Origin: an uncultured Chloroflexia bacterium
Lineage (GTDB): Bacteria > Chloroflexota > Dehalococcoidia > GIF9 > AB-539-J10
Length of the DNA stretch: 64,000 bases
Direction: 5' to 3'
Assembly: GCA_963726175.1 (NCBI GenBank)
Contig: CAVSBM010000008.1
Span: 26,153-90,152, forward strand
Below are positions 29,671 through 64,000 of the stretch, piece after piece. The position numbers and the translations under genes are program-made. Within the stretch, counting starts at the first letter, position 1. The number at the start of each line of letters is the position of its first letter. Under the pieces are notes generated by a model that had not been told where the DNA came from, made no database searches, and worked only from the letters and a program-made list of their open reading frames with translations.

Positions 29671-29700
29671 GTCCTTTTGTACCTCAACTTTTCTTTTTTG

Positions 29701-34823: not shown

Positions 34824-34992
34824 CCTCGATTAAGGAAACAAATTAACCAAGAGACGGCGGAAGGGATGCTCTAAGTCGTGTGTGTGCCATTGAGGTGTGT
34901 GCATATATCTGTTTTGCAGTCTGCTGGGCGACCGCGACTTATCATATAAGCATTATGCAGGCATCAAATTGGTGCTCAAGGGGGTACAATAC

Positions 34993-35775: not shown

Positions 35776-35816
35776 ACAACACGCAGGCATATTATGAAAC
35801 CAGAAAGGAGGTTGAT

Positions 35817-41289: not shown

Positions 41290-41294
41290 AGCAA

Positions 41295-47579: not shown

Positions 47580-48212
47580 ATGGCTAAAGACCTAGTCAAG
47601 ACATTGGCTGATTTGAAGGAACAAGAGGTTATTAAGATTGTTGAGGATAGGCTGAACGCCAAGGAAGATCCACTCAAAATCTTGGAGGACGCCAGGAGAG
47701 GCATGGAAATCGTGGGCAAGCGTTTTGCCAACAGCGAGTACTTCATACCTGACCTGGTGTACTCCGGTGAGATACTTAAGTCGGTAACCGAGCTGGTCAA
47801 GCCCAAGCTGACCAAGGCGGCTGAGAGCAAGAAGCTGGGCAAGGTTGTTTTCGGCACGGTTGCCGGGGATATACACGACATCGGCAAGGACATCGTCGTC
47901 TTTATGCTCGATGTCAATGAGTTTGAGGTATACGACCTCGGCGTTGATGTCCCGGCGCAAAAGTTTGTGGAGAAGATAAAGGAGACTGGGGCCCCCATTG
48001 TTGGCTTAAGCGGATTTTTGACGCTGGCTTTTGATTCCATGAAGCAAACTATGGACGCTATAAAGGCCGCCGGCTTACGAGACAAGGTAAAAGTCATGAT
48101 TGGCGGCGGGCAGATAACCGATGAGATAAGGAAGTATACAGGTGCTGATGCCTATGGTAAGGATGCCATGACCGGGGTGTCCCTGGCCAAGAAATGGGCA
48201 GGCGCCAAGTAA
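47580..48212 (+). CDS. corrinoid (cobalamin-binding) protein of a methyltransferase system
   Basis: 210 aa with an N-terminal helical cap. B12-binding motifs DxHxxG (GDIHDIGK), SxL (LSGFL) and GG (MIGGG) are all present. Confidence 0.85.
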   Translation: MAKDLVKTLADLKEQEVIKIVEDRLNAKEDPLKILEDARRGMEIVGKRFANSEYFIPDLVYSGEILKSVTELVKPKLTKAAESKKLGKVVFGTVAGDIHDIGKDIVVFMLDVNEFEVYDLGVDVPAQKFVEKIKETGAPIVGLSGFLTLAFDSMKQTMDAIKAAGLRDKVKVMIGGGQITDEIRKYTGADAYGKDAMTGVSLAKKWAGAK

Positions 48213-48242
48213 TAATCCTCACACAATGCGGAGGTAATAGAA

Positions 48243-49580
48243 ATGGAAAAGAAATGGGAAGAGATGTCACCAGAGGAAAAGCAAGAAGCGCGGTTTCAGA
48301 AGTGGCTTGCGCCGGAGGGCGTCAAGTTTGCCAGCCCGGAAGCTGGGAAGCTCTACAAGGAGAGGGCCACCCGGATAAAAGACGCCATCCAGATGAAGAA
48401 GAAGCCGGACAGGGTGCCGGTACTGCTGATACCTAGCTTTGCCCCTGCCTTTTATTCCAGACTGACCCCTCGTGAGGTCATGTATGACTATGAAAAAGCC
48501 AACCAGGCCTGGAAGAAATTCTACCTTGACACTCAGCCAGATGCACACTTTGGCTGCGTGGCGCCTGGGCCGGGACCCTTCTTTGACATTCTTGACTACA
48601 AGTTGTACAAGTGGCCTGGCCACGGCGTCGCACCTGAATCCACCTACCAGGCTATCGAAGGCGAGTACATGAAGGCGGATGAATATGATGCCTTGATCCA
48701 GGACCCGACATATTTCTTCACCACCACCTATCTGCCACGCATATTCGGCGCACTGGAGTCCTTCAAGCAACTGCCTAATCTCACCACCTATGTTGAAATG
48801 TACGGGACAGGCATTACTTTCTTCCCCTACGGTCTGCCCGATGTTCAGGCTGCCTTCAAGAAGCTTCTGGAAGCCGGGAGTGAAGCCCTGAAATGGCTGG
48901 GATATTTCGGTGCCTTTATGAAGGAGATGACGGAGTTGGGATTTCCCGCGGGTCAGGGCGGCTATACCAAAGCGCCTTTTGATATTCTGGCTGACACCCT
49001 CAGAGGCACTAAAGGGATAATGATGGATATGTACCGACAGCCCGATAAGCTCATCAAAGCCATGGATGCCATGTTGCCATTCTGGATTCAGAAGGGGGTG
49101 ATCGAGGCAAATATGAACTCAAATCCTCTAATATTCATACCTCTGCATAAAGGTGCCGATGGGTTTATGTCTGACGAGCAGTATAAGAAATTCTACTGGC
49201 CTTATCTGAAGAAGATAATCCTGGGCTTGGCTGACGAGGGAGTGGTGCCATTCATCTGGGCTGAAGGGGGCTATAACTCGCGTCTGGAGGTCATCCGAGA
49301 TTTACCGAAGGGTAAAACAGCATGGTTGTTTGACATCGTAGATATTGCCAAAGCCAAGAAGGCACTGGATGGCATTGCCTGCGTGTGCGGCACCATGCCC
49401 ACGGACTTGCTGACAATAGGCACATCCCAGCAAGCTAGAGACCACGCCAAGAAGTGCATTGATGTTGCCGGCAAAGGCGGCGGCTATATCATGAGCAATG
49501 GAGCATTCTTCGATCAGGTGAAGTGGGAGAATCTCAAGGCGATAGTTGAAACCGTCAAGGAATACGGAGCATACAAATAG
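48243..49580 (+). CDS. uroporphyrinogen-decarboxylase (URO-D) family methyltransferase (substrate:corrinoid MT candidate)
   Basis: 445-aa intact ORF lying 30 nt after the corrinoid protein gene. The URO-D-like TIM-barrel assignment rests on overall similarity as I recognise it, together with the operon context. Confidence 0.6.
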   Translation: MEKKWEEMSPEEKQEARFQKWLAPEGVKFASPEAGKLYKERATRIKDAIQMKKKPDRVPVLLIPSFAPAFYSRLTPREVMYDYEKANQAWKKFYLDTQPDAHFGCVAPGPGPFFDILDYKLYKWPGHGVAPESTYQAIEGEYMKADEYDALIQDPTYFFTTTYLPRIFGALESFKQLPNLTTYVEMYGTGITFFPYGLPDVQAAFKKLLEAGSEALKWLGYFGAFMKEMTELGFPAGQGGYTKAPFDILADTLRGTKGIMMDMYRQPDKLIKAMDAMLPFWIQKGVIEANMNSNPLIFIPLHKGADGFMSDEQYKKFYWPYLKKIILGLADEGVVPFIWAEGGYNSRLEVIRDLPKGKTAWLFDIVDIAKAKKALDGIACVCGTMPTDLLTIGTSQQARDHAKKCIDVAGKGGGYIMSNGAFFDQVKWENLKAIVETVKEYGAYK

Positions 49581-49638
49581 CTACCGAACGGGTTAGCGGG
49601 CTGGCGCGGTAACATAAGAGCAAAAAAGAGGCTGTGCT

Positions 49639-50328
49639 ATGCCTATAATCCGCGATATCCCCATGAGACTGAAGGCCAGAGAAGTGCTACGCCGGCAGGG
49701 ATTGGGGCGAGGAGCTAAAGTCAGGCCAGAGATAAAAACTTTAATCCGGGAACTGCTCGTTAGTGTCAGCAAGGCACACCTTTTACAACCTGCTATCGCT
49801 TATGAAATCTACACTATAGCTGAGATAAACCAGCGGCAATTGTCCCTCGAGGACGATCCAGAAGTTCATAACTCGTTATTATCTTCAGTGCTAGACCAGG
49901 CAAAAGAGCTCGCCGTTGCCGTCTGCACTATTGGTCCCAGGCTGGAAGGACAGGCGTCAGATTACTTCAACCACGGGGAGCCATTGCGAGGCACGCTTCT
50001 GGACGGCATCGGCAGCGCTGCTGTGGACTCGCTAGCCGAGGAATTCTGCAGGTTTGTGGCAAATGAAGCGTCATCCCGTGGCTACGAGGTGAGCAGCCCC
50101 ATCAACCCGGGTATGCCTGGTTTACCGATTACCGCGCAGAGGCAGTTGCTTAAACTCGTGCCGGCACGGGAAATCGGAGTGAGCCTGACTTCCTCAGGAA
50201 TAATGGTCCCTCGCAAATCAGCCTCCATGGTCATGGGCATCGGACCAAAAATGACCAAGTGGACACGAGCTGAGGTCTGTGCGCGCTGCCACCTCAACAA
50301 GGCCTGTTCTTATAGAATATCGGCCTGA
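49639..50328 (+). CDS. methionine-synthase activation-domain-like protein (Met_synt_B12-like)
   Basis: 229 aa. ..SPINPGMPGLPITAQRQLLKLVPAREIGVSLTSSGIMVPRKSASMVMGIG.. parallels the MetH reactivation domain. A C-terminal CARCHLNKAC is also present. Confidence 0.6.
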   Translation: MPIIRDIPMRLKAREVLRRQGLGRGAKVRPEIKTLIRELLVSVSKAHLLQPAIAYEIYTIAEINQRQLSLEDDPEVHNSLLSSVLDQAKELAVAVCTIGPRLEGQASDYFNHGEPLRGTLLDGIGSAAVDSLAEEFCRFVANEASSRGYEVSSPINPGMPGLPITAQRQLLKLVPAREIGVSLTSSGIMVPRKSASMVMGIGPKMTKWTRAEVCARCHLNKACSYRISA

Positions 50329-50441
50329 TCGGAAAACGGAATACAGGAGCAAATATTTGACCATCGTGAATATTATGTGATAAAAAGTCTCACTCAGGTG
50401 AGTCAATGTGGATGGTGAACAGTGGGCATGGATGGTGATAA

Positions 50442-52331
50442 GTGACAACCAAAGCCTTCGCCAACAAGAAGGTGACTGCTTGCACAATTGACTTTGAGCC
50501 GGTAGGTCGCAGAGGGAGGTGTCAAAGGAACGAGTCTCTTCTGACTTGTGCTCGGCGCCTCGGTGTAGGTATCAGCAGCGTATGCGGGGGCAACGGAACA
50601 TGCCATGCATGCAGGGTGCAGGTCCTAAGTGGCACCGTCTCCAAACCAACACCTAACGAAGAAGAGACATTTGATTCACAAGAACTGAAAGAGGGGTGGC
50701 GGCTTGCCTGTCAGACTTATCCCGCGAGCGATGTGAAGTTGGTGATCCCAGCTGAGTCCATGACCACCCCACAGCGACTTCAGGTGGAGGGACTGGAGGT
50801 GAGAGTCTCCCCCGAGCCATCAGTTCGAGTCTACCGCCTGCAGCTATCTGCTCCCTCACTGGAGGACCCCCAAGCTGATGCCGACCGCCTGCTTAAGACA
50901 CTGAGCCAGCAGCACAAGCTGCGATGCGCCAAGATTGACATTGGTGCCCTGCGCACGATCTCCGGCCAACTGCGGTCGTGGAAGTGGAGAAGTCAGGCTG
51001 TAGTCCGTAATGGCGAGGTGATAGCCATTCTCCCCTCAAAAAGCCGCCGGCTGGGGCTGGCCATAGACCTGGGCACCACCAAGATTGCTGGCTACCTGGT
51101 TGACCTCACTGATGGCCGGACTTTGGCCGCCAAAGGGATAGTGAATCCTCAAATTAGCTACGGGGAAGATATCATCAGCCGTATTAACAGGGTGGTGAAG
51201 TCACCAGATGGGGGTGTACAGTTGCAGAAACTCGCGGTTGACGCCGTCAACGAGCTTTGCGCTGACCTCTGTGCTGAGGCTGGTGCCAAATCTGAACAGA
51301 TTTTGGAGGCAGTAGTCGTGGGCAATACCGCCATGCATCACCTTTTCCTTCGCCTGCCTGTAAAACAGCTTGTGCTCTCTCCTTTCGTGCCTGCCGTCAG
51401 TCGGGCATTGGAGGTCAGGGCTGGCGAATTGGGGCTGAATATTACCTCCGGGGCATACGTACACCTGCTGCCGAACATCGCCGGCTTCGTTGGTGCTGAT
51501 CATGTAGCGATGTTGCTGGCCACAGATGCCTGGCAGGCAAAAGAAACAACGGTGGCTCTGGACATCGGGACTAACACCGAGGTCTCTTTAATCTACAAGG
51601 GGAAGATAGCCACTACCTCCTGTGCCTCCGGACCTGCCTTCGAGGGTGGCCATATCAAGTACGGCATGCGGGCAGCCACAGGAGCTATTGAACGCCTGCG
51701 GCTTATCGACGATGTGATCCAGTATCAGACAATCGATGAGGCGCCGCCGGTTGGCATCTGCGGCTCTGGCATACTTGATGCACTGGCTCAGCTTTATCTG
51801 GCTAAAGTCATAGATGAAAGCGGCAGAATGATGAACAACCACCCGCGTATTCGCAATTACAAAGGACAGCACGAGTTTATATTGGTTAACAAGGAGGAGC
51901 GGAATGGGAAGCCAGCTATCACCATCACCCAGCATGACATAAGGGAATTGCAGCTGGCTAAGGCAGCCATTCGCACCGGCATCCAGGTGCTTCTGGAAAC
52001 GAGCGGCTGCGCTGAAGACGATATCAAGCAGGTGATAATTGCCGGAGCCTTTGGCACCTACATCGATATATCCAGTGCCGTGGCAATCGGCATGTTGCCG
52101 CCACTGCCTCTGAAACACTTCCGGCAGGTGGGCAATGCCGCCGGCATGGGAGCCAAGCTGGCACTGATTTCCCTTAGATCGCGGGCCCAGGCAGAGGCTA
52201 TCGCCTCCAGAGTTAGTTATATTGAACTAGCCAGCAGCCCTAACTTTCAGCCAACATTTATGCAGGCAACTTATCTGGGAAGATATCGCATTGTAGACGG
52301 CAGAAGGGAGAAATTGACTTATGCAGACTAG
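50442..52331 (+). CDS. reductive activator of corrinoid proteins (RACo; 2Fe-2S ferredoxin + ASKHA ATPase, DUF4445)
   Basis: 629 aa with a GTG start. The N-terminal plant-type ferredoxin carries CGGNGTCHACRV. The ASKHA part has LAIDLGTTKIAG, ALDIGTNTE and GICGSGILD. Confidence 0.8.
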   Translation: MTTKAFANKKVTACTIDFEPVGRRGRCQRNESLLTCARRLGVGISSVCGGNGTCHACRVQVLSGTVSKPTPNEEETFDSQELKEGWRLACQTYPASDVKLVIPAESMTTPQRLQVEGLEVRVSPEPSVRVYRLQLSAPSLEDPQADADRLLKTLSQQHKLRCAKIDIGALRTISGQLRSWKWRSQAVVRNGEVIAILPSKSRRLGLAIDLGTTKIAGYLVDLTDGRTLAAKGIVNPQISYGEDIISRINRVVKSPDGGVQLQKLAVDAVNELCADLCAEAGAKSEQILEAVVVGNTAMHHLFLRLPVKQLVLSPFVPAVSRALEVRAGELGLNITSGAYVHLLPNIAGFVGADHVAMLLATDAWQAKETTVALDIGTNTEVSLIYKGKIATTSCASGPAFEGGHIKYGMRAATGAIERLRLIDDVIQYQTIDEAPPVGICGSGILDALAQLYLAKVIDESGRMMNNHPRIRNYKGQHEFILVNKEERNGKPAITITQHDIRELQLAKAAIRTGIQVLLETSGCAEDDIKQVIIAGAFGTYIDISSAVAIGMLPPLPLKHFRQVGNAAGMGAKLALISLRSRAQAEAIASRVSYIELASSPNFQPTFMQATYLGRYRIVDGRREKLTYAD

Positions 52332-53175
52332 AGTGTCAAGTCCGAAGAAAGAAGTCATCATTGGTGATGACCAGCCCACAGTGCTTATCGGCGAGCGTAT
52401 CAATCCCACAGGCAAGAGAAAGCTAGCCGAGGCTCTTAAGGCTGGCGACCTGGAGATTGTCCGCAAGGAAGCCTTGGCTCAAGTGCAAGCCGGGGCCGAT
52501 ATTATTGATGTCAACGTGGGGGCATTCGGCGTCGACGAGGTGACCCTGCTGCCCAAAGCAGTGCAGGCAGTGATGGGCACCGTAGACGTACCCCTATGCC
52601 TTGATAGCTCTAACCCCGATGCTCTCGAGGCGGCACTCAAGGTCTATAAGGGTAAGCCGCTGGTTAACTCAGTTACCGGTGAAGAGCACTCCCTGAAGCG
52701 GATTCTACCTTTAGTCAAAAGATATGGGGCTGCCGTCATCGGTCTGGTGCAGGATGATGAAGGTATTCCCAAGGATGCTGAGCGAAGGGTGCTGATTGCC
52801 CATAAGATAGTGGAAAAGGTCGAGGCAGCAGGCATACCCCGTGAGGACTTAGTCATTGATTGCCTGGCTTTCGCGGTAGGAGCTGAACCTAGCTCTGGGG
52901 TGGCAGTTATAGAAGCCATCCGGCGGATTAAGGCCGAACTGGGGGTGAACATGACAATGGGTGCCAGCAATGTATCTTTCGGCTTGCCTGACCGCGAACT
53001 GCTCAATAACGCCTTCGTCGTCATGGCTGTTGCCGCTGGTGCCACCTGCCTCATTGTGGATGTGGCTAAGGTGCGCCCAATTATTCTAGCTGCCGACATT
53101 GTGCTCGGTCGTGACAAGCGTGCCCGACGCTATATTGAAGCCTATCGGCAGCGCCCGAAGCCGGATAGACAATAA
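52321..53175 (+). CDS. methyl-tetrahydrofolate:corrinoid methyltransferase (pterin-binding, MeTr/AcsE-like)
   Basis: 284 aa with ..IGERINPTGKRKLAEAL..GADIIDVNVG.., ..NSVTGE.. and ..MGASNVSFGLP.., as in DHPS-like pterin-binding barrels. Confidence 0.8.
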   Translation: MQTRVSSPKKEVIIGDDQPTVLIGERINPTGKRKLAEALKAGDLEIVRKEALAQVQAGADIIDVNVGAFGVDEVTLLPKAVQAVMGTVDVPLCLDSSNPDALEAALKVYKGKPLVNSVTGEEHSLKRILPLVKRYGAAVIGLVQDDEGIPKDAERRVLIAHKIVEKVEAAGIPREDLVIDCLAFAVGAEPSSGVAVIEAIRRIKAELGVNMTMGASNVSFGLPDRELLNNAFVVMAVAAGATCLIVDVAKVRPIILAADIVLGRDKRARRYIEAYRQRPKPDRQ

Positions 53176-53199: not shown

Positions 53200-55287
53200 A
53201 TGAAGAATAAAAAAATGCTCCTACCAGCCCTGCTTGCTATCGTTCTGTTCTTCAGCCTGATTCCTCCTGCTTCGGTAGCGGGAGATTCTACAATGGCACG
53301 GAACGTGGGCTCTGTTATGAGTCTAGGGCAAGCAATGCCCATGGTTGCCGCAGGCTTCACACACACGGTAGGGCTCAAGTCTGAAGGCACCGTGGTCGGT
53401 GTGGGAGCCAACTCCGACGGGCAGTGCAATGTGGGCAACTGGACGGACATCATCCAGGTCGCAGCAGGCGGCCAACACACGGTGGGGCTAAAGGCCGACG
53501 GCACCGTGGTCGCCGTGGGAAGCAACTCCGACGGGCAGTGCAATGTGGGCAACTGGACGGACATAATTCAAATCGCCGCTGGTGTCTATCACACAGTAGG
53601 GGTTAGGGCTGATGGCACTGTGGTCGCCGCGGGATGGAACGGCGGCAATCAGCTCAATGTGGGGAGTTGGACAGAGATCATCCAGGTCGCTGGAGGTTAT
53701 GGTCACACGGTAGGGCTTAAAAGCGACGGCACTGTGGTCGCCGTAGGATACAAAGGGTCTGGACAGAGCGATGTCGGCGACTGGAGAGACATCGTTCAGG
53801 TCGCTGCCAACAGCTATCACACGGTAGGGCTTAGAGCCGATGGCACAGTTGTCGCTGTGGGAGATAACTCCTCCGGGCAGTGCAATGTCGGGGAGTGGAG
53901 GGACATCACTAACGTCGCTGCAGGCTACGACCACACAGCGGGGCTCAAGGCCGACGGCACTGTGGTTGCCGTGGGAAAGAGCGACGACGGGCAATGCGAT
54001 ATCGAGGAATGGACGGACATCATCCAGGTCGCCGCAGGTGGCTGGCACACAGTCGGACTTAAGAACGATGGCACCGTGGTCGCCGCGGGAAGGAGCTACT
54101 ATGGGCAGTGCGATGTCAGCGGCTGGACGAATATCACCAAGATCGCCGGGAATGTCAAGCACACGGTGGGGCTTATGAACGATGGCACCGCGGTCGCCGT
54201 GGGATGGAATGGCTACGGGCAGTGTGATGTCGAGAGCTGGACAGACATCATCCAGTTCGCCGCAGGTTATGGTCACACGGTGGGGCTTATGAACGATGGC
54301 ACGGTGGTTGCCGTGGGAGATAACGGCTACGGGCAGTGCGATGTCGGCAACTGGACGGACATCGTCGGGGTCGCCGCAGGCTCCAGGCACACGGTGGGGC
54401 TCAAGACCGACGGCACCGTGGTCGCCGTGGGAGATAACCAGTTCGGGCAGTGCAATGTGGGCAACTGGACGGACATCGCCCAGGTCGCCGCAGGCGGTAG
54501 TCACACTGTGGGGCTTAAGGCCGACGGCACCGTGGTCGCGGCGGGGGACAACGAGTATGGCCAGTCTGCTGTGAGCGACTGGACGGGCATCACCCAGGTC
54601 GCCGCAGCGGGCTATAATACAGTCGGGTGCAAAGCCGATGGCACCGTAGTTGCCACGGGACAAGACTACTACGGGCAGTGCGATGTCGGCAGTTGGACAA
54701 ATGTCATCCAAGTCGCGGCAGGCGGCAGTCACACGGTGGGGCTTAAAGCCGACCGCACCGTGGTCACCGTGGGAAGCGATGCCGGCGGGCAGTATGCCAT
54801 CAATAGCTGGACCGACATCACCCAGGTCGCCGCAGGCGAGTTTCATACGGTGGGACGTAAGGCCGATGGCACTATGGTCGCTGCCGGCCCTGATATCGAA
54901 CTCGCCAAATGGAATCTGGGCGTTGTCGAGTATACCCTTACCGTCTCCGGCACTGCTGATGGTTCGGTAACCGCTCCTGGTGAAGGCGTGTTCACCTATA
55001 ATGCCGGGATGCTGGTGCACCTAGTCGCCAGGCCAGAGAAAGGCTACCGCCTTGTCAAGTGGGCTGGCGATGTGGACACCATCGCCAATGTCAACGCCGC
55101 CACAACCGTCATTGCCATGCACGGCGACTACGCTGTAACTGCCAACTTTGGGCTCAACTGGCCGTTAATCGCTGGGGTTATAGGGGCAGTGGTAGCTGCG
55201 GGACTGGCGATCTTTTTCTTACGTAGAAGGAGAGCCACCCGGACAGAGAGGCAAGGCCGAAGAAGAGCCGCCCGGAAAAAACGCTGA
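53200..55287 (+). CDS. secreted, membrane-anchored RCC1-like repeat protein (14 x 38-aa units) with B-repeat-like domain
   Basis: 695 aa with an N-terminal signal peptide. It has 14 units of ..HTVGLKADGTVVAVG.N..GQC.VG.WTDI.QVAAG.. (114-nt period, some stretches identical at DNA level). These are followed by a YTLTVSGTADGSV...GDYAVTANFG domain, a TM helix and a basic tail (RRRRATRTERQGRRRAARKKR). Confidence 0.8.
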   Translation: MKNKKMLLPALLAIVLFFSLIPPASVAGDSTMARNVGSVMSLGQAMPMVAAGFTHTVGLKSEGTVVGVGANSDGQCNVGNWTDIIQVAAGGQHTVGLKADGTVVAVGSNSDGQCNVGNWTDIIQIAAGVYHTVGVRADGTVVAAGWNGGNQLNVGSWTEIIQVAGGYGHTVGLKSDGTVVAVGYKGSGQSDVGDWRDIVQVAANSYHTVGLRADGTVVAVGDNSSGQCNVGEWRDITNVAAGYDHTAGLKADGTVVAVGKSDDGQCDIEEWTDIIQVAAGGWHTVGLKNDGTVVAAGRSYYGQCDVSGWTNITKIAGNVKHTVGLMNDGTAVAVGWNGYGQCDVESWTDIIQFAAGYGHTVGLMNDGTVVAVGDNGYGQCDVGNWTDIVGVAAGSRHTVGLKTDGTVVAVGDNQFGQCNVGNWTDIAQVAAGGSHTVGLKADGTVVAAGDNEYGQSAVSDWTGITQVAAAGYNTVGCKADGTVVATGQDYYGQCDVGSWTNVIQVAAGGSHTVGLKADRTVVTVGSDAGGQYAINSWTDITQVAAGEFHTVGRKADGTMVAAGPDIELAKWNLGVVEYTLTVSGTADGSVTAPGEGVFTYNAGMLVHLVARPEKGYRLVKWAGDVDTIANVNAATTVIAMHGDYAVTANFGLNWPLIAGVIGAVVAAGLAIFFLRRRRATRTERQGRRRAARKKR

Positions 55288-55534
55288 ATTGAGCTTTCAG
55301 CCAAGGCATTCTTGCCACAGAACATGCTATGGAGTCAGCCAAGAGTTGACGGTTACTGCCTGGCGATGATACCATTGAGAGAGGTCATCTCTGGTCGTGA
55401 AATCATCCAGATGGGAGGCAATAGAGATAAGAGATGAACTGAAGGCTCAAACGAGAATCTGACTGTCTTTAACTATCACATCGGTCCTATGTAACTGCAG
55501 GAAATTCTGAAAAAGGAGGTGCAACATCGGCGAT

Positions 55535-56290
55535 TTGTTTGATTTGACAGGCAAGGTTGCTGTAGTGGTTGGTGGTGCTGGCGGCATCGGTCGTGCACAA
55601 GCTCTGGCGCTCGCGGATGCTGGTGCTGACGTCATCGTGGCTAGCCGTAAACTTGAACATCTCGAGCCGGTAGCCAAAGAGATACAAGCTCGGGGTAGAA
55701 AGTCACTGGCTGTTCCTGTCGAGGTTACTGAAGAGAAATCAGTAGCGGCTATGGTCGATAGTGTCGTGAAGAAATTCCCACACATTGATATTCTGGTAAA
55801 CGCTCATGGTCTGGCGATTCGCAAGCCTGCCGATGCCTTTCCCATTGATGAGTGGCAGAAGGTTATGGATATTAACACCCGCGGCACCTTCCTCACCTGC
55901 CAGGCGGTTGGGCGGGTGATGATCAAGCAGCGCAGTGGTAAGATCATAAACCTATCGTCGGTGAGAGGCAGATACGGCCTCCCAGCAGACTACGCGGCCT
56001 ATTGTGCCAGTAAAGGGGCTGTAGATAGCCTGACACGAACGCTGGCCTGCGAGTGGGCCAAGTACAACGTACTGGTGAACGCACTCGCGCCCACTATGGT
56101 GGAGACCGAACTTACCCGTACTGCCTTGGCCAACCCTCAGTTTGCCCAGCAGATGAAGTCCCGTATTCCGCTCGGCCGTTGGGCAATGCCGGAGGATATT
56201 GTGGGGGCTACCATATTCTTTGCCTCAAAAGCGTCAGACTTCATCACCGGGCAAATCCTGTACATCGACGGTGGCGTGACTACCTGGTAG
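55535..56290 (+). CDS. SDR-family oxidoreductase (candidate phloroglucinol reductase)
   Basis: 251 aa with VAVVVGGAGGIGRA and a catalytic YCASK. It is the first gene of a five-gene co-directional operon. The start codon is uncertain (TTG 55535, or ATC 55526 closer to the AGGAGG). Confidence 0.8.
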   Translation: MFDLTGKVAVVVGGAGGIGRAQALALADAGADVIVASRKLEHLEPVAKEIQARGRKSLAVPVEVTEEKSVAAMVDSVVKKFPHIDILVNAHGLAIRKPADAFPIDEWQKVMDINTRGTFLTCQAVGRVMIKQRSGKIINLSSVRGRYGLPADYAAYCASKGAVDSLTRTLACEWAKYNVLVNALAPTMVETELTRTALANPQFAQQMKSRIPLGRWAMPEDIVGATIFFASKASDFITGQILYIDGGVTTW

Positions 56291-56335
56291 TAGAATACTT
56301 TACAGCTAGAATCTAATTTTAGGGAGGTACATATT

Positions 56336-57277
56336 ATGGGTAAAAAAGTATTTGTTTCTCTGTCGCATCCCTTCGGTGCGGAAATTCCCCGCTGGCCTTA
56401 TTTTGACAAGCCGATAATCGATAATACGCACACCATGGCAAAAGGCGGCGTTCTGACGCAGAAGATCACCTGCACTATGCACACCGGTACGCATTGCGAT
56501 GCTCCCCGTCACGTTATGGAAATCGAGTTCGACGGCAAAAGAGCCCGTTACACGCACGAAATGCCTATTGATGCCTACACTGGCGATGCCGTTTGCCTTC
56601 CCATCGAGATCGAGCGCTGGGGACTGATCCTCCCGAAGCATCTTGAGGCTGCCTGCGAAAAAGTGGGTATCAAGCCGAGCGAACTGAAAGGCATGGTCGT
56701 TTGCCTGAATAGTGGCATGCATCGCAAGTTTGACGACTCCAAGGAGTACTATCATTATTCCTGCGGTACCGGCGTCGAAGCCGGCAGATGGTTTTTAAAG
56801 CACAAGGTAAAGTGCGTTGCTCAGGATATGCAGGCGTCGGACCATCCTCTCCACACCGCTATGGGCAACAACGGCATGACCCGTATGAACCTCCTCGGCG
56901 CTTCCGGCAAGCCTATCACCGAAGAGTACATTGAGCAGTTCGGTGAAGAAGCCTATGCCGAATTTGATAAGTTTACCTACATCAAAGTGCATGGCAAAGA
57001 AGCTTATGACAAGAAGTTCGGCGACCTGGAAGCCATCGGCTGCTGGGGCACCTGGGAGCCCTGCCATAAGATACTGCTGGGTCACGGCATAGTCGGCATT
57101 GAAAACCTTGGCGGAGATCTGGATAAGGTTTCCGGTAAGCGCTTCAGGTTCTACTGCTTCCCGATCCGCTGGTACATGGGCGATGGCTCCATGGCTCACT
57201 GCGTTGCAGAAATCGACGAAGACGATCTGAATGATGTGCCCGATAGGACCTACACCTACGCCGGCGTCCTCGCTTAA
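56336..57277 (+). CDS. cyclase-family metal hydrolase (kynurenine formamidase/isatin hydrolase-like; candidate dihydrophloroglucinol cyclohydrolase)
   Basis: 313 aa with the HxGTHxDxPxH motif present as MHTGTHCDAPRH. Confidence 0.7.
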   Translation: MGKKVFVSLSHPFGAEIPRWPYFDKPIIDNTHTMAKGGVLTQKITCTMHTGTHCDAPRHVMEIEFDGKRARYTHEMPIDAYTGDAVCLPIEIERWGLILPKHLEAACEKVGIKPSELKGMVVCLNSGMHRKFDDSKEYYHYSCGTGVEAGRWFLKHKVKCVAQDMQASDHPLHTAMGNNGMTRMNLLGASGKPITEEYIEQFGEEAYAEFDKFTYIKVHGKEAYDKKFGDLEAIGCWGTWEPCHKILLGHGIVGIENLGGDLDKVSGKRFRFYCFPIRWYMGDGSMAHCVAEIDEDDLNDVPDRTYTYAGVLA

Positions 57278-57329
57278 GTATATAGCTGTTTGTTTACCCC
57301 GATAATTCAAAACTAAATATGGAGGAGAT

Positions 57330-57662
57330 ATGAAAAAGATTAATCTAGCTCAGGTCAAGCCCTATGAGGCTGCCGGTCATTTCAAGATGGTTGCGCTCAG
57401 GTTAAGTGGCAAAGAGGAGACCGGAGCTGAGAAGTTCTGGGTAGGCATGTCCCATTTCCTTCCCGGTGGTGGGGCGGAATTCGGGGCCACGCCAGCGGAG
57501 AAATACTATTTCGTTCTGGACGGAGAAATCACCGTTAAGACCAAGAAGGAAGAGATTACCCTCGGGCGATGGGACTCAGTCTACATCGGTCCCAACGAAG
57601 GTAGAGAAATCATCAACAAGAGCAATAAACCCGTGAGTATGCTGGTGGTCATTAACTATTAA
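57330..57662 (+). CDS. cupin-domain protein
   Basis: 110 aa with a small beta-barrel pattern (..YYFVLDGEITV......GRWDSVYIGPNEG..). Confidence 0.55.
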   Translation: MKKINLAQVKPYEAAGHFKMVALRLSGKEETGAEKFWVGMSHFLPGGGAEFGATPAEKYYFVLDGEITVKTKKEEITLGRWDSVYIGPNEGREIINKSNKPVSMLVVINY

Positions 57663-57723
57663 TAGTCTTCTCTGTTGCGAGCAATTGTCACGATTCCTGC
57701 CTGAGTAGGAAAGAGGGCAGCTT

Positions 57724-58671
57724 ATGAAAGCAGAAGAAATTAATCACGTTGGCCTGCTGGGAGCCGGCATGGTGGGGCATGGACTGGCACTGCATTTTGC
57801 GAAGGCAGGTTATCGGGTATCTTTATACTCCCGGACTCAGCAAACGCTGGACAAAGCCGTTGAAAATATTAAGTCAAATCTCCACGTCCTACTGCAAGGA
57901 CAAGCTAGCGTAGAGGATGAAGTAAAGAAGATCATAAGCAGGATAAAAACAACAAGAAACATAGACGAAGCAGTGGCGAAGGCCCCAATTATTATCGAAT
58001 CAGTGGCTGAAGACCTAAAGGTCAAACAAGATCTATTTAAGGAACTAGATCAGATCTGCCCCAGGGATGTTATTCTGGCCACAAATACATCGGTAATCAG
58101 CATAACCGCGATAGCATCTAAAGCCAAGAACCGGGATAGAATCATTGGAACACACTTCTGGTTTCCGCCATACCTTATCCCTCTGGTTGAGGTGGTAAAG
58201 GGAAAGGACACCTCTAGTGACACAATGGAAACAACCTATCAATTCATGAAAAAGGCTGGGAAACACCCCATCAAATGCTTGAAGGACGTCCCAGGATTCG
58301 TCGCTAACCGTCTCCAGCACGCCCTGTGGCGGGAAGCCATCTCAATCGTAGAAAAAGGGATTGCCGATCCAGCTACTGTCGACGATGCTATCAAGCAGAG
58401 TTTTGGCATCCGGATTCCGGTTCTGGGGCCAATTGAGAATGCCGATATGGTGGGGCTAGATTTGATTCTGGCCATCCACAATACAGTTTTGCAGGATTTG
58501 GAGGCTTCTCCCAACCCCTCACCGCTCTTGAAGGACAAGGTAAGTAAAGGTGAGCTTGGGTTCAAATCTGGAAAAGGCTTCTATGACAGCTGGACACCAG
58601 AAAGGATGAAGCGCACTAGAGAAAGGCTTATGAAGCATCTCATTGATTACTCCCGCAAGCAACAAACTTGA
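57724..58671 (+). CDS. 3-hydroxyacyl-CoA dehydrogenase-family NAD(P) oxidoreductase (candidate 3-hydroxy-5-oxohexanoate dehydrogenase)
   Basis: 315 aa with a Rossmann N-terminus (VGLLGAGMVGHGLA) and 3HCDH N- and C-domain-like regions. Confidence 0.75.
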   Translation: MKAEEINHVGLLGAGMVGHGLALHFAKAGYRVSLYSRTQQTLDKAVENIKSNLHVLLQGQASVEDEVKKIISRIKTTRNIDEAVAKAPIIIESVAEDLKVKQDLFKELDQICPRDVILATNTSVISITAIASKAKNRDRIIGTHFWFPPYLIPLVEVVKGKDTSSDTMETTYQFMKKAGKHPIKCLKDVPGFVANRLQHALWREAISIVEKGIADPATVDDAIKQSFGIRIPVLGPIENADMVGLDLILAIHNTVLQDLEASPNPSPLLKDKVSKGELGFKSGKGFYDSWTPERMKRTRERLMKHLIDYSRKQQT

Positions 58672-58710
58672 GACACTGTGTGATATCGATAACCGGCAAC
58701 GCAAGGAGGA

Positions 58711-59655
58711 ATGCACGAGATGGAAAAACTAATCATAACCGCGGCTCTAACCGGCAATATCACCCTGCCGACTCAGACACCTTATCTACCGCTTACACCA
58801 CAACAAATCGCCGATGAGGCGGTAAGGTGTGCCAATGCCGGTGCAGCTTCGGTACACATCCATGGCCGGGACCCCCAGACCGGCAAGCCGACTACTGACC
58901 CAGCGGTCTACCGGGAGATTGCCACTCTCATCAAGGCAAGAAGCAACGTCATTGTCTGCGTGACCACCGGCGGCACCATGGAAATGACCGCGGCGGAAAG
59001 GATAAGGGTTGTCCCGGCTCTTAAGCCAGAGCTGGCTACGTTTAACATGGGATCGATTAACTTCTCAATCCACCCCATAGCCGAGCGATATAAGGACTCG
59101 GACTACAAGTATCCCTGGGAGAAGGATTTTGCCGCCGGAACCATAAATTTCATCTTCCGTAATACCTTTGGTGATATCGAGCACTTCTGTAAGACCATGA
59201 CTGAGAATAATACAAAACCCGAACACGAAGCATATGACGTAGGGCACCTGTACAATATACAGTATTGTATTAGGAGAAAGCTTGTGCAATTCCCCATCTG
59301 GGTTCAATTCGTGACTGGAATTTTGGGAGCGATCGGCGCTGATCTGGAGAATATCATGTTCATGAAACAGACAGCTGACCGATTGTTCGGGCCGGAAAAC
59401 TACAAGTGGTCGGTAATTGGTGCGGGCTATCCCGCGGAGTTCAACCTGGCGACGCTGGCGATAATGATGGGTGGGCATGTTCGCGTTGGCTTTGAAGACA
59501 ATATTTTTGTGCGCAAAGGAGTATTGGCCAAGAGCAACGCTGAACTGGTAGAGAAGGCAGTCAGAATCGCCCGGGAGCTAGAACGGGAAATAGCTACGCC
59601 GGACGAAGCAAGAGCGATCCTTGGCCTGAAAGGGAAGGACAAGGTCAGCTATTAG
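58711..59655 (+). CDS. beta-keto acid cleavage enzyme (BKACE/DUF849) family protein (candidate triacetate acetoacetate-lyase)
   Basis: 314 aa. ..LIITAALTGN......ASVHIHGRD.. is the typical BKACE N-terminus. The start may be ATG 58720. Confidence 0.75.
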   Translation: MHEMEKLIITAALTGNITLPTQTPYLPLTPQQIADEAVRCANAGAASVHIHGRDPQTGKPTTDPAVYREIATLIKARSNVIVCVTTGGTMEMTAAERIRVVPALKPELATFNMGSINFSIHPIAERYKDSDYKYPWEKDFAAGTINFIFRNTFGDIEHFCKTMTENNTKPEHEAYDVGHLYNIQYCIRRKLVQFPIWVQFVTGILGAIGADLENIMFMKQTADRLFGPENYKWSVIGAGYPAEFNLATLAIMMGGHVRVGFEDNIFVRKGVLAKSNAELVEKAVRIARELEREIATPDEARAILGLKGKDKVSY

Positions 59656-59697
59656 AAGGACTGGGCATAATACCCGACAGAAGAATCTCTTCGATTT

Positions 59698-60324
59698 CTA
59701 TTTTGTTTCTTGAGCCCGGCGATCTTCTGTTGGCGACTGGTAGGTGGCTACTTGACGGCTTTTGCAATCTGTAAGCTTGGACACGTTTGAAGGGGATTGC
59801 GTCAAATCAGCGACGACCACAAATTCGTACTCAGGGAAATGCCTCTGAAGTGCTTCTTTTAACGAACTCCTTACTACTATGAGCACGCTAACTGGTGAGG
59901 CTAGGGCTAGTTCGACTGCTGGCATAAGCCCCTTGCCACACAGTTCCAACGGGCCGACCTCATCGATGACCACCAAATCGCATCTACTTTCAACTGCCCT
60001 TTTGATAGCACCGCAGGCAAACGCAATCGCACGACTGCTGATGGTATAGTCGCCAACCACTTCACCTCCCTTGAAACGTCCAAGGCAGGACAGCCGGGCG
60101 AAAGGGACCTCTTTGCCGGTGAGGAGGTCAATTACGTTGAAGCCAATTCGTTGTCTTTGCTTCTCAATCGCTGGGGAAAGGACTCCGCCAACGCTGGAAC
60201 CGCATTGTCGCCGCCGGTCAATGTATTCTCTGCACCAACTGGTCTTGCCCGACCTTGGTTCACCTACGACGAGCAGTCTCACTAAAGATCTGATGCGAAG
60301 GCAACTGCCGCGCCAATCCAGCAA
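59698..60324 (-). CDS. P-loop NTPase, DUF2478/THEP1-like
   Basis: 208 aa. Walker A GEPRSGKTS and Walker B DLVVIDEVGPLE. Confidence 0.6.
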   Translation of the reverse strand: MLDWRGSCLRIRSLVRLLVVGEPRSGKTSWCREYIDRRRQCGSSVGGVLSPAIEKQRQRIGFNVIDLLTGKEVPFARLSCLGRFKGGEVVGDYTISSRAIAFACGAIKRAVESRCDLVVIDEVGPLELCGKGLMPAVELALASPVSVLIVVRSSLKEALQRHFPEYEFVVVADLTQSPSNVSKLTDCKSRQVATYQSPTEDRRAQETK

Positions 60325-60345
60325 AAGGCCATGATGGCTATAGTG

Positions 60346-60991
60346 CTAGCATAGAACAAACTTGGGCTTCACAGTCATGAGTTGCCAGAAGTTGGGTCGG
60401 AGCTTTGCGCCCACCAGGTGTCCTAGGAGCAGCAGACAAGTACCTACAATAGCCAGAGCTGTGCCATCGGTAAGTGCCGCAGTGACCCTCTCAGTAGGTC
60501 CCCAGGATGCCCAGTTGCCCATACCTATGGTCGATGCCAGGATGGCGTAAAGGATGGCGCTGAGGTATCCTGCTGAGATACCAACAGCAATGCGCGTCTT
60601 GATACTGCTTTCGAAACCTTTAAACAACAGGCTGACTACCAGGGTGAAGGCCAGTGCTTCCAGAAGGATTGCCGAGGCAGGATTGACCACGAAGGGAGAA
60701 AAGATAGGTTGGCCATAAATCACGGCGCTCAGCGGCTTGAACAGGGCGGCGATGACTCCGAGCCAGAATACGAGTCTTAGGCCGTCGATAGATGACAACA
60801 AATGTTGCCATGAGTGCCATGCCGATGCCCCCTGTAATTGCCCCTTTGTAGGCGAAGTGGACAAGGTGTAAAGCCCCGCCCAGAGTAGCTTCCACAAGGC
60901 CCCAGATTGAGCCAAAGACCAGAATCCCGACGATTACACGCAAAATAGTCCCCGACCCCGAGAGTGTTTTGATTTTGTTAGATACCTGCAT
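60346..60991 (-). CDS. hypothetical polytopic membrane protein (one frame break)
   Basis: ORFs 60620-61006 (from MQVSNK...) and 60346-60915 overlap in different frames and read colinearly as one membrane protein of about 215 aa. The break lies near 60790. Confidence 0.45.
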
Positions 60992-61136
60992 ACTTTGCCT
61001 CCCCATTCATAAGCTTGCCTGAGTTTGCACTTAACTATATCAAACAGGGATTTTTTGGTCAATATGATGTTGACTGTTCCGAGTTCACCGTATTAGAATA
61101 ATAAACTGAGTCAGACGAAAAAGGAGGTGGAAGAAT

Positions 61137-63729
61137 ATGGCTCGTTCTGCGAAAGAAGAACAGGTTTTTACCAATTGTACCGTCGGCGGACCACTTTTTG
61201 TGTACGTGAAGAACGGGAAAATAACACGCGTTGAACCCTTGGAGCTCAGTCCTGATGATGCTGAATCCTGGGTCATAAGAGCACGGGGAAGGAAATTTTC
61301 CCCTGCGAGAATGGCGAACGTTGCACAATATGCCTTGGCTGAGAGGTCAAGGATATATTCCCCCGATAGGCTTCTTTATCCCCTTAAGAGAGTTGATTTC
61401 AATCCGCAAGGAGATAGAAAAGCTGAAAACAGGGGTACGTCAGGCTATAAGCGAATCAGCTGGGACGAAGCCTTAGATATTCTGGCCAAAGAAATAGAGC
61501 GTGTCCACAAGACTTATGGGCCTGGCGCAGTTCTCACCACGCCTTCTTCACATCACAATTGGGGCAATATAGGTTACAGGCACAGCAGCCTCTTAAGGTT
61601 CATGGGAATCCTGAATGCTACCTACGTTGACCACAATCCGGATAGCTGGGAGGGGTGGCACTGGGGGGCAATGCATATGTGGGGGTTTGCCTGGAGGCTG
61701 GGCATTTCATCGCAATACGATCTCCTGGAAGATGCCTTGAAACACGCCGAGATGGTGGTCTACTGGTCTTCTGACCCTGAAAGCACCTCCGGAATCTATG
61801 GAGGGCAGGAGTCAAATCAGTGGCGTTCCTGGCTGAAGGAGCTGGGGGTGAAAATGATTGTTGTAGACCAGCATTATAATTCCACCGCTGTGAATTTTGC
61901 TGACAAATGGTTTGCTCCCAGGCCGGGAACTGACACAGCGATGGCAGCAGCTATCGCCTATGTCTGGCTTACGGAAGGCACATACGATAAGGAATATATT
62001 AAGGAACATGCACACGGATTTGAAAAGTGGAAAGGCTATATACTTGGCGAAGAAGATGGTTTTGCCAAGACGAGTGAATGGGCTGAAAAAGAAACAGGAG
62101 TACCAGCACGAGAGATTAGGGCCCTGGCAAGAGAGTGGGCCAGGCGTAAGACTATGCTGGCCTCTGGGAGCGCACTTGGGGGAGGAGCCTGCAGGACGGC
62201 CTACGGGACAGAATGGGCAAGGTATATGGTTATGCTGGCAGCCATGCAGGGGATGGGCAAGCCAGGGAGCAACATATGGACAACAAACTACGGTGCCCCC
62301 CAGAATTTTGACTTCTTCTTTCCGGGATATGCTGAAGGCGGCATATCCGGCGACCCACTAAACACTGCTGCCCACTTCCAAATGGTCTCACGAGGAATAA
62401 CAAAACATCCGATAAGGTCTGAAGTGAATGATCCTGGGGGACAGCATATACCCAGGATTCTACTTCCTGAGTGCATTTTGAATCCGCCTCAGGAGTGGCG
62501 AGGGAAGGGCTTTTGTGGCGCTTCGCCTGAAACTCAGTTCAAGAAATACAAGTATCCTGAAGATGGATACTCTGAGGTGAAGATGTTCTGGCGGTATGGC
62601 GGTTCCTATATTGGCACCATGAACAACACAAACAGGTGGGTCAGGATGTACCGGAGTCCCAAGCTTGAGTTTGTGGTTAACCAGTCAATCTGGATGGAAG
62701 GTGAAGCGCAACTTGCTGACTTGATACTTCCAGCCTGCACCAATTTTGAGAGATGGGACATCGGCGAGTGGGCTAACTGCTCGGGTTACATTCCTCATTG
62801 CCATTATACAGTCAACCATCGGACAATAGTGCTACAAAAGAAATGTATTGAACCACTGGGAGAATCTAAGGCAGATTACGACATATTCGCTGCGGTAGCT
62901 GAGAGGCTTGGCTTCTACGAGCAAGTTCACCGAAGGGGGCTTAACAGAGCTGGACTGGGTAAAGAAGCTGTTCCAATTAACTGACCTGCCGAAGTACATT
63001 TCGTGGGAAGAGTTTGAGAAGAAAGGCTACTTCGTTGTCCCACTGCCAAAACCTTATAAGTCCACACCAAGTTTGAGATGGTTTGCCGAGGGACGGAAGA
63101 ACGATACACCAGACTGGGGACCTGTGGGTGGAGGGGTAGCAAGCATACCAGATGCCGAAGGCAACCTGGCTACCCAGACGGGTAAAATAGAGTTTGAAGC
63201 AGAAAGCCTCAAACGGTTCGACCCCGATGACTGGGAAAGGCCACCCGTGGCCAAGTATATCCCTTCCTGGGAAGGTCATCACACAAAGGAGCTTTACTCC
63301 AAATACCCCCTTCAGCTCATTTCTCCTCACCCGAGGTATAGTTTTCACACCATGTATGATGGTAAAGATAGCTGGATAAATGAAATACCGGAACACAGGG
63401 TTAAAAAGGAAGATGGACGGTACTACTGGGTGATTCGGATAAATTCGAGAGACGCCGAGAAAAGGGGCATAAGAGATGGCGATTTGGTCAACGTCTACAA
63501 CGACAGAGGAGTTGTCATATGTGCAGCGCAGGTTACAGAGCGTGTCCCATACGGTATGGTTCATTCGTACGAGTCCTGCGCTGTTTATGACCCAATCGGA
63601 GAGCCTGGCGAATCGCCAGATAGAGGTGGATGTATCAACCTGCTGACACCGCATCGTTTTATATCTAAGAATGCCTGTGGCATGGCTCCGAATTCCTGTC
63701 TGGTTGAAATTGAAAAGAGGAGGGAATAA
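61137..63729 (+). CDS. molybdopterin oxidoreductase large subunit, pyrogallol-phloroglucinol transhydroxylase (AthL)-like (one frame break)
   Basis: ORFs 61137-62984 and 62908-63729 join with a +1 break near 62925 (..LGFYEQ/FTEGGLTELDW..). It has no twin-arginine signal and no N-terminal Cys cluster. Blocks such as GGPLFVYVKNGKITRVEP, HNPDSWEGWHWGAMHMWGF, ILPACTNFERWDIGEWANCSGYIP and HSYESCAVYDPIGEPGESPDRGGCINLLTP match my recollection of the Pelobacter enzyme. Confidence 0.7.
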
Positions 63730-63731
63730 AT

Positions 63732-64000
63732 ATGGCTAAGTGGGGTATGGTAATAGATATAACAAAGTGCAATGCTTGCTATAGCTGTTTCATAGCCTGC
63801 AAAGACGAGTACTGGGATAACGATTATCCTCCCTATTCCGCAGGCTCAGCCCAGGCATGGACAATTCTGGATGGACCTCGTGAAGAAAGAGCGTGGAGCG
63901 TGTCCTTGGGTGAAGGTCGCATACATACCTGTACTTTGTATGCAGTGCGACAACGCGCCCTGTGTTAAGGCTGCCAGGAACCGCGCGGCATATAAAAGGC
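63732..64000 (+). CDS. 4Fe-4S ferredoxin-type beta subunit of the molybdoenzyme (partial; one frame break)
   Basis: MAKWGMVIDITKCNACYSCFIACKDE.... After about 63845 the +1 frame continues AQPRHGQFWMDLVKKERGACPWVKVAYIPVLCMQCDNAPCVKAA.... The 3' end lies outside the window. Confidence 0.7.

Follow-up and report, generated by a model that had tools for sequence, protein, structure and literature searches.

We analysed a window of 64,000 nucleotides from contig CAVSBM010000008.1 of an uncultured Dehalococcoidia genome, in which a first-pass annotation had picked out five adjacent genes and read them as an operon for anaerobic phloroglucinol degradation. Positions given here are window positions, and L numbers denote genome loci of relatives. 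Five co-directional, intact open reading frames (ORFs) occupy 55535-59655 on the plus strand, with intergenic gaps of 45, 52, 61 and 39 nucleotides. The ORF list bore out the genes, strand and spacing as first described, and Pfam profile searches recovered each of the five proposed folds. The motifs on which the folds had been proposed were also found: GGAGGIG at residues 13-19 of the short-chain dehydrogenase/reductase (SDR), with its YxxxK motif as YCASK at 156-160, and HTGTHCDAPRH at 49-59 of the cyclase-family protein. The genes are as follows.

55535-56290, plus strand: SDR of 251 residues (adh_short_C2), candidate NADPH-dependent phloroglucinol reductase (PGR) of a second lineage
56336-57277, plus strand: predicted dihydrophloroglucinol cyclohydrolase (DPGC, type 1), a retro-Claisen hydrolase of 313 residues, from PF04199 and homology to CsDPGC of Clostridium scatologenes
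57330-57662, plus strand: small monocupin of 110 residues without a canonical metal site (Cupin_2, 1.4e-10), a conserved cluster member
57724-58671, plus strand: predicted (S)-3-hydroxy-5-oxohexanoate dehydrogenase of the TfD type, 315 residues, from 3HCDH domains and homology to CsTfD of C. scatologenes
58711-59655, plus strand: BKACE of the long subfamily, 314 residues (PF05853), candidate triacetate (3,5-dioxohexanoate):acetyl-CoA lyase/transferase

The five-gene set is not a chance juxtaposition. All five genes are full length, and no frame-breaking indel relative to relatives was found in 55535-59655. As for the proposed check that the gene order should recur in other Dehalococcoidia metagenome-assembled genomes (MAGs), the order SDR, DPGC, cupin, 3-hydroxyacyl-CoA dehydrogenase-fold enzyme (HCDH) and BKACE was repeated in eleven independent ones (L002, L003, L004, L006, L013, L081, L083, L161, L162, L167 and L177). 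A query with the DPGC-like protein returned 447 genome loci, the best from Chloroflexi bacterium RBG_13_51_36 (L001, 98% identity) and the next from Dehalococcoidales MAGs (88-95%), and about 8 kb of the window aligned to Chloroflexi/Dehalococcoidales MAGs at 88-90% nucleotide identity; the genome had rightly been called Chloroflexota-like, with RBG_13_51_36 as its nearest relative. When partners were counted within 5 kb at the 52 DPGC loci having at least 3.5 kb of flank on each side, an SDR was present in 51, an HCDH and a BKACE in 47 each, and the cupin in 43. The SDR ORF starts with TTG, and the sequence AAGGAGG lies 14 nucleotides upstream of the start. A scan of 55200-61200 for consensus promoters and terminators gave counts not above those of shuffled sequence and no terminator-like site inside the operon, so that spacing and synteny are what the operon call is based on. 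Rfam searches of the entire window returned six tRNAs only, none of them close to the operon.

In C. scatologenes, PGR (an SDR), DPGC (Mn2+, cyclase family), TfD (3HCDH fold) and the triacetate acetoacetate-lyase TAL (a BKACE) have been characterised (Zhou et al. 2023, PMC10470551). The pathway was reconstituted from these four enzymes, and the cluster was reported in many bacteria and in Archaeoglobus (PMC10470551). The window operon has the same four enzyme families, and we compared each protein with its counterpart.

Strong homology supports the ring-opening assignment predicted for the cyclase-family protein. It matched Cyclase PF04199 with an E value of 2.2e-28 (99.7 bits) and was 79% identical over 311 residues to CsDPGC, whose sequence we took from Fig. 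S4 of PMC10470551 as machine-read, slightly lossy text. The concern that the characterised DPGC might belong to a different fold did not materialise, as the two proteins are of the same fold family. The metal motif is the same as that of CsDPGC, and the Trp20/Tyr22 signature is kept within PRWPY; these residues stand where isatin hydrolase has its substrate residues and were singled out by the authors of PMC10470551. Data set S3 of the same paper lists A0A1F8M9R6 (313 residues, Chloroflexi bacterium RBG_13_51_36) as a DPGC. This entry corresponds to the 98%-identical protein of L001 and shares a UniRef50 cluster with CsDPGC. The C. scatologenes locus was not among the best 80 of the 447 loci found with the DPGC query.

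DPGC was also the most conserved gene of the cluster. Between Dehalococcoidia and Clostridium, Spirochaetia or the alphaproteobacterium Martelella (L017, L018, L056, L065), type-1 DPGC proteins were 82-89% identical, and the genes adjoining them only 31-58%. Identity at third codon positions of identical residues was 0.44-0.61 across the four loci, near saturation, and 0.44-0.51 against Clostridium, Spirochaetia and Martelella. Recent horizontal transfer, which we considered as a cause of this conservation, was ruled out by the low third-position identity. Third positions that have diverged at such high amino-acid identity point to purifying selection on DPGC.

The HCDH gave Pfam matches to 3HCDH_N (7e-59) and 3HCDH (2.6e-23) and was 50% identical over 303 residues to CsTfD (E 1e-100), the latter sequence being taken from a machine-read alignment figure in the supplement of PMC10470551. 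The concern that its closest characterised homologues might belong to other pathways was thus not borne out. In CsTfD, His143 is catalytic, and Ser122 and Asn194 serve stereo-recognition (PMC10470551); the corresponding Ser123, His144 and Asn195 of the window protein are invariant in 65 cluster HCDHs. In an alignment with the C. butyricum HBD (4KUG), the CoA-contacting Lys56 and Asn221 were replaced by Ala61 and Arg230. The Asn221-equivalent site is Arg in 63 of the 65 cluster HCDHs, and in CsTfD too. Because the CoA contacts are lost and the Arg is conserved, these residues fit a TfD that acts on a free carboxylate and not on a CoA ester. The best PDB match, 4OM8, bears the name of an enzyme whose substrate is a free carboxylic acid and not a CoA ester. 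An NADP+ preference read from Ser36-Arg37 was dropped, as the NADH-preferring CsTfD likewise carries Arg at this site and lacks an acidic residue.

The BKACE matched PF05853 with 4.7e-106 (354.6 bits). Its best NCBIfam model was NF053538, named '3,5-dioxohexanoate:acetyl-CoA acetone transferase', which it matched over the full length with 410.9 bits. The Kce model NF052387 gave 286.8 bits, 124 below NF053538, so that the enzyme of lysine fermentation, named in the first pass as a possible closest relative, is not the closest. The best structures were 3LOT (367.6 bits) and 8RIO, the Paracoccus BKACE15 (288.3 bits). The window protein aligns full length with these long-type BKACEs, namely BKACE15 (8RIO/8RIP/9HNF), 3LOT (an uncharacterised protein) and NF053538, although its score on the last lies below the equivalog cut-off. 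Kce belongs to the same BKACE TIM-barrel family, and its zinc-binding HxH and Glu motifs are found in the window protein, but the two align with 164 bits in two stretches, and Kce is shorter by about 40 residues. The window protein has His49-x-His51 and Glu262-Asp263, which by analogy with Kce would be zinc ligands. Ile17, which follows T-G-x, stands at the position of Kce Glu14, and Ile is also found in 3LOT and 3E02. Kce Glu14 binds the 5-amino group of its substrate, and CsTAL has Trp16 (PMC10470551). For P. denitrificans BKACE15, 3,5-dioxohexanoate is among the confirmed substrates, and its gene context suggests aromatic degradation; several beta-keto acids are reported as substrates for its subfamily, and the physiological role of BKACE15 was stated as unknown (PMC11961710).

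Comparison with CsTAL was made through proteins of Firmicute clusters and not with the CsTAL sequence itself. The single Firmicute-cluster BKACE scanned, from L065, scored 323 bits on the Kce model and 233.5 bits on NF053538, and the Trp in the T-G-A-W of this CsTAL-type protein is not conserved. The first-pass equation of the BKACE with TAL therefore stands for the family and for the dioxohexanoate model, but the protein is not a CsTAL orthologue and falls in the other, long subfamily. A triacetate-cleaving role, reached through a subfamily other than that of CsTAL, is nevertheless supported for the predicted protein.

By homology, the SDR is the weakest link of the predicted pathway. It matched adh_short_C2 with 1.3e-63 and has the Ser142/Tyr156/Lys160 triad and Arg38. 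For comparison with CsPGR we used 5G4K and Firmicute cluster proteins. We take 5G4K to be the phloroglucinol reductase structure of Conradt et al. 2016, although its entry name is generic and the literature searched does not mention the entry. The Firmicute-cluster SDRs are 50-90% identical to 5G4K, and its cluster context fits a PGR. CsPGR is reported to be 59.5% identical to the enzyme of Clostridium sp. ATCC BAA-442 (PMC10470551). What remains of the earlier equation of the SDR with PGR is its fold, triad and cluster linkage, but orthology to the characterised PGR is not among them. No PGR-type gene was found elsewhere in the 64-kb window.

Two independent tests, of linkage and of signature residues, nevertheless point to a reductase role. 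In an SDR-anchored genome scan of loci with adequate flanks, the 21 loci with at least 47% SDR identity had an HCDH nearby in 20 cases, the cupin in 16, an AthL-like gene in 14 and a DPGC in 13; below this threshold, cluster genes lay nearby in 1 of 28 loci. We then aligned 58 SDRs of the PGR clade, 48-50 of the window clade and 36 unlinked SDRs and derived signature residues of the PGR clade from this analysis and not from the literature. Arg144, two residues after the catalytic Ser, was found in 58/58 PGR-clade, 47/48 window-clade and 0/36 unlinked proteins. Gly16 was present in 58/58 and 47/48 of the two clades (at most 7/36 unlinked, or 3% in the other alignment), Leu193 in 58/58 and 43/48 (6/36 unlinked), and Phe236 in 56/58 and 42/48 (7/36 unlinked). 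The TR(S/N) motif of PGR contacts the 2'-phosphate of NADPH (PMC10470551). The window SDR has A-S-R38-K, the Arg of which aligns with Arg71 of 5G4K (T-G-R-N) with different flanks, and Arg is common in unlinked SDRs too. The linkage threshold at 47% identity and shared residues such as Arg144 support a reductase role, and SDRs of the window-type clade may form a second lineage of phloroglucinol reductase, apart from the characterised one. In several Dehalococcoidia loci a DAPG/phloretin-hydrolase-like gene, the family name of which implies phloroglucinol release, adjoins the SDR-DPGC-cupin trio.

The first-pass annotation had further pointed to a transhydroxylase-like molybdenum enzyme nearby. 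Downstream of the operon lie an NTPase gene (PF03266/DUF2478), then a membrane-protein gene on the minus strand, and then the following two genes.

61137-63729, plus strand: homologue of the pyrogallol-phloroglucinol transhydroxylase large subunit (AthL-like; PF21423, PF00384), split
63729-64000, plus strand: Fe-S small subunit (BthL-like), start only, cut by the window end (tblastn)

The AthL-like protein matched 4V4C, the large subunit of the Pelobacter acidigallici pyrogallol hydroxytransferase, with 808.6 bits over residues 11-596, and its first domain matched PF21423 with 77.4 bits. A tblastn search with the 4Fe-4S protein of L107 recovered the BthL-like gene as two pieces in different frames. 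As in P. acidigallici, a large-subunit homologue is followed by an Fe-S subunit, but the window genes carry 1-nucleotide insertions. The neighbour is thus transhydroxylase-like as proposed, with strong homology to the Pelobacter enzyme, but its reading frame is broken.

Taken together, the operon very probably equips a Dehalococcoidia bacterium to degrade phloroglucinol, an intermediate of plant-phenol breakdown, anaerobically to acetyl units by a pathway of the C. scatologenes kind. This had been the original reading of the five genes, and it gains support from the CsDPGC and CsTfD identities, the NF053538 score and the AthL neighbour. In the proposed scheme, the SDR would reduce phloroglucinol to dihydrophloroglucinol with NADPH, as a reductase of a non-orthologous lineage. 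A Mn-type DPGC would then open the ring hydrolytically to (S)-3-hydroxy-5-oxohexanoate, which the TfD-type dehydrogenase would oxidise as the free acid to 3,5-dioxohexanoate (triacetate). Finally, the long-type BKACE would convert triacetate and acetyl-CoA to acetoacetyl-CoA and acetoacetate. The adjoining AthL/BthL would feed the pathway by turning pyrogallol into phloroglucinol.

The make-up of the cluster is a mosaic, in which DPGC and TfD are related to the characterised enzymes, the reductase and lyase come from sister subfamilies, and a cupin is conserved. The C. scatologenes cluster shares the four enzyme families and the proposed chemistry, and it has an orthologous cupin, CSCA_1081. 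In contrast, the window reductase is from another SDR clade, the window lyase is of the long type and not the short Kce-like TAL with Trp16, and no thiolase or CoA-transferase genes adjoin the window operon. The order also differs, SDR-DPGC-cupin-TfD-BKACE here and cupin-PGR-TfD-DPGC-TAL in most Firmicutes loci. A further known system is Rv1714-Rv1718 of Mycobacterium tuberculosis, of which Rv1714-Rv1716 were noted as resembling the Clostridium polyphenol cluster (PMC5894108), and M. tuberculosis DPGC-type proteins were listed in the 2023 survey (PMC10470551). The M. tuberculosis DPGC is of a second type (UniRef50_A5U375), whereas the window DPGC is of type 1. The operon adds one member to a known family, since the pathway has already been described in print and the data set of 2023 contains a Chloroflexi DPGC nearly identical to this one.

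Several observations weigh against this reading. The SDR was 33% identical to 5G4K (136.7 bits) and scored higher, 193.8 bits, against the gluconate 5-dehydrogenase 1VL8; its best PDB and NCBIfam matches were gluconate 5-dehydrogenase/KduD-like. The BKACE fell 19 bits short of the NF053538 equivalog cut-off (410.9 vs 430), has Ile and not Trp at the position of CsTAL Trp16, and was 33-39% identical to the short Kce-like, CsTAL-type BKACEs of Firmicute phloroglucinol clusters. Neither a thiolase nor an acetoacetate CoA-transferase was found in the 64-kb window. A 1-nucleotide insertion near 62922 splits the AthL-like gene, and another, near 63842, was found in the BthL-like gene by comparison with L001, L003 and L006.

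Part of this evidence would agree with an operon of the same enzyme chemistry that acts on another cyclic 1,3-dione or polyketide-like substrate, such as a dione derived from resorcinol or a phloroglucinol bearing an acyl or methyl group, with an SDR that is not a PGR. The SDR is not PGR-orthologous and, judged by general libraries, resembles SDRs of sugar acids; several beta-keto acids are reported as substrates for the BKACE subfamily; and the cluster has a modular build, in which two types of DPGC and several clades of SDR occur. However, the close identity to CsDPGC together with the intact substrate-recognition residues Trp20/Tyr22 makes a change of ring substrate unlikely, and the SDR shares the signature residues of the PGR clade. 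Enzymes that make phloroglucinol are, moreover, co-located: AthL here, and the DAPG/phloretin-hydrolase-like genes in sister loci. We consider this alternative improbable.

The broken frames raise the further question of whether the locus is a decaying remnant, with a pathway perhaps no longer functional in its host. Besides the insertions in the two transhydroxylase genes, single-base insertions at 60357 and 60777 relative to the same three relatives break the membrane-protein gene (60346-61006, minus strand), and the genes for a Liv-type ABC transporter and for an aldehyde:ferredoxin oxidoreductase (AFOR) are fragmented. Yet the five operon genes are intact, and all the indels are insertions in the window. 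AthL is a single ORF of 871-872 residues in L001, L003, L004, L006 and L008 and is frameshifted in the window only. At the insertion site the window reads TACGAGCAAG, and relatives read TACGAG-AAG or TACGA-CAAG. Because TACGAGCAAG looks like a merge of these two spellings (GAG-AAG and GA-CAAG), the AthL frameshift is likely a consensus or assembly artefact, and we regard a remnant as very unlikely.

That the family match is coincidental, and the locus a generic beta-keto-acid or fatty-acid-type operon (lysine fermentation with Kce, carnitine/dehydrocarnitine cleavage, or 3-hydroxybutyryl-CoA metabolism), is scarcely credible, since weak matches of carnitine dehydrogenase models to the HCDH are set against the 124-bit deficit of the Kce model, Ile17 in place of Glu14, an HCDH without the CoA-binding Lys and Asn and with Arg at the latter site, a cyclase-family protein that has no role in such pathways and yet is the most conserved cluster gene, and the scanned window ORFs, which gave no lysine-fermentation or carnitine Pfam domains, with no search aimed at those genes.

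Within the phloroglucinol pathway reading, the cupin deserves separate treatment. The first pass had set it aside as an extra member; it is instead a widespread cluster component, as the census of DPGC loci showed, and occurs in C. scatologenes as well. There the orthologue is CSCA_1081, two locus tags away from CSCA_1083, the gene of CsDPGC; it was detected in proteomics of excised gel bands (Data set S1) and is undiscussed in the text of PMC10470551. In a cupin-anchored scan based on a six-sequence alignment, 55 loci had an SDR/PGR in 48 cases, a DPGC in 44, an HCDH in 35, a BKACE in 28, an AthL-like gene in 21 and a family III CoA-transferase in 11. The cupin accompanies phloroglucinol clusters in at least eight phyla.

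The canonical metal ligands are absent from this protein: where the Mn cupin TM1459 has His52, His54, His58 and His92, the alignment places Gly52, Thr54, Lys58 and Arg92. Invariant or near-invariant residues of the family are Y12, H17, K58, Y60, E90, R92 and N96. A PDB sequence search gave weak generic matches only, and an AlphaFold model (pLDDT 74, poor at the N-terminus) retrieved by Foldseek only generic monocupins such as TM1459. The window cupin matched the model NF050094, based on Rv1717 of the M. tuberculosis Rv1714-Rv1718 region, with 84 bits, below its cut-off of 175. NCBIfam names Rv1717, the sole named relative of the family, a beta-D-galactosidase. On the basis of pNP-galactoside assays, the protein was reported to be a beta-galactosidase, in a text that makes no mention of Rv1716 or an operon (PMC7873859). 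As a general annotation for the cupin family this name is doubtful, because the family sits almost exclusively in phloroglucinol clusters. Our literature search found no published function assigned to the cupin family.

The cupin is kept with SDR and DPGC where the lower module consists of a family III CoA-transferase and a second SDR in place of HCDH and BKACE. As it is retained despite this exchange, gene content argues that it most likely serves the upper pathway, that is, reduction and ring opening. Cationic and acid-base residues line its pocket, as would be apt for binding an enolate or phenolate, and we guess that it either acts as a keto-enol tautomerase or binds anionic phloroglucinol or dihydrophloroglucinol. 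The four-enzyme pathway was rebuilt in vitro without the cupin (PMC10470551), and it is therefore not essential for the chemistry. We offer only tentatively the idea that anaerobic phloroglucinol catabolism has in this cupin a fifth, dedicated component, which would work with the reductase and the ring-opening enzyme, perhaps as a tautomerase or anion carrier.

Related clusters in other genomes vary in their composition. The lower module of family III CoA-transferase and second SDR was found in the Dehalococcoidia clusters L025 (6411-11334), L084, L085, L178, L193, L201, L215, L218, L222, L223 and L225, where the lower pathway would seem to run through CoA esters. A DAPG/phloretin-hydrolase-like gene often lies upstream of such clusters in divergent orientation. 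A further type of DPGC, sharing about 40% identity with type 1, was present at 5364-6134 of L003 and 4299-5069 of L004 (minus strand) and also in L082, L086, L088, L165, L166, L168, L170 and L183. In Dehalococcoidia operons that are collinear in other respects, this second type, probably the UniRef50_A5U375/Rv1716 one, either lies upstream as an addition to type 1 or takes its place. Clusters of Actinomycetes, Thermoleophilia and Acidobacteriota have HCDH-SDR-cupin-BKACE (L100, 3888-8038; L107, 3858-10701; L101-L103 and L138), but a hidden Markov model search for a cyclase-family ORF within 6 kb was negative in L100-L103, L107 and L138. In L100 and L107, the two loci checked by Pfam, a partial crotonase (ECH_1) protein lies just upstream, which could be an alternative ring hydrolase. 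We did not adopt the cupin as a substitute for DPGC in DPGC-less clusters, the upstream ECH_1 protein being at least as plausible a ring hydrolase.

Upstream of the operon, the window holds a corrinoid-dependent methyltransferase set, assigned from Pfam matches.

47580-53175, plus strand: corrinoid-dependent methyltransferase set, comprising
47580-48212, plus strand: corrinoid protein (B12-binding and B12-binding_2)
48243-49580, plus strand: URO-D/MtaA-like methyltransferase
50442-52331, plus strand: RACo reductive activase
52321-53175, plus strand: pterin-binding methyltransferase (Pterin_bind)

A 229-residue protein of this set gave a faint Met_synt_B12 match. The set resembles aryl O-demethylase systems, from which we infer that it could supply hydroxylated aromatics from methoxylated ones. 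No phloretin hydrolase was found in the 64-kb window. Between this set and the operon, 53200-55287 encodes a 695-residue RCC1-repeat protein with an N-terminal signal-like segment, a C-terminal hydrophobic anchor and a basic tail; its repeats are regular enough to leave an antisense ORF of 510 residues, and in L002 and L004 the repeat region likewise precedes the operon. The Liv-type ABC transporter genes (40455-43708; BPD_transp_2, ABC_tran) are broken into overlapping ORFs of 110-165 residues, and the AFOR gene (44067-45651) is split into AFOR_N and AFOR_C pieces, a further sign of frameshift-prone sequence or of pseudogenes. Farther upstream, two DUF169 genes flank an SDR gene (34897-35775) in 34038-36566, and 26754-33062 holds an aldehyde dehydrogenase and a GlcD/GlcF-like FAD/CCG oxidoreductase set.

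Two points go further than the literature consulted and are put forward as leads: the window-type SDR clade as a second reductase lineage with the shared Arg, and the breadth and specificity of the association of the cupin with these clusters. If the window-type clade is a true PGR lineage, its members could escape annotation that relies on the Clostridial PGR. Phloroglucinol clusters are modular, with two DPGC types, several SDR clades, and two BKACE types or a CoA-transferase route, and surveys keyed to the Clostridial enzymes may under-count the pathway. Conversion of pyrogallol to phloroglucinol was proposed earlier for Chloroflexi/Dehalococcoidia from transhydroxylase genes (PMC3971608, PMC4959651). 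This older inference, drawn from AthL genes, stopped at pyrogallol transhydroxylation, and the present operon would tie the Dehalococcoidia to complete ring cleavage of trihydroxybenzenes. Members of this class are abundant in anoxic sediments and aquifers, and such ring cleavage would bear on the O2-free mineralisation of polyphenol carbon.

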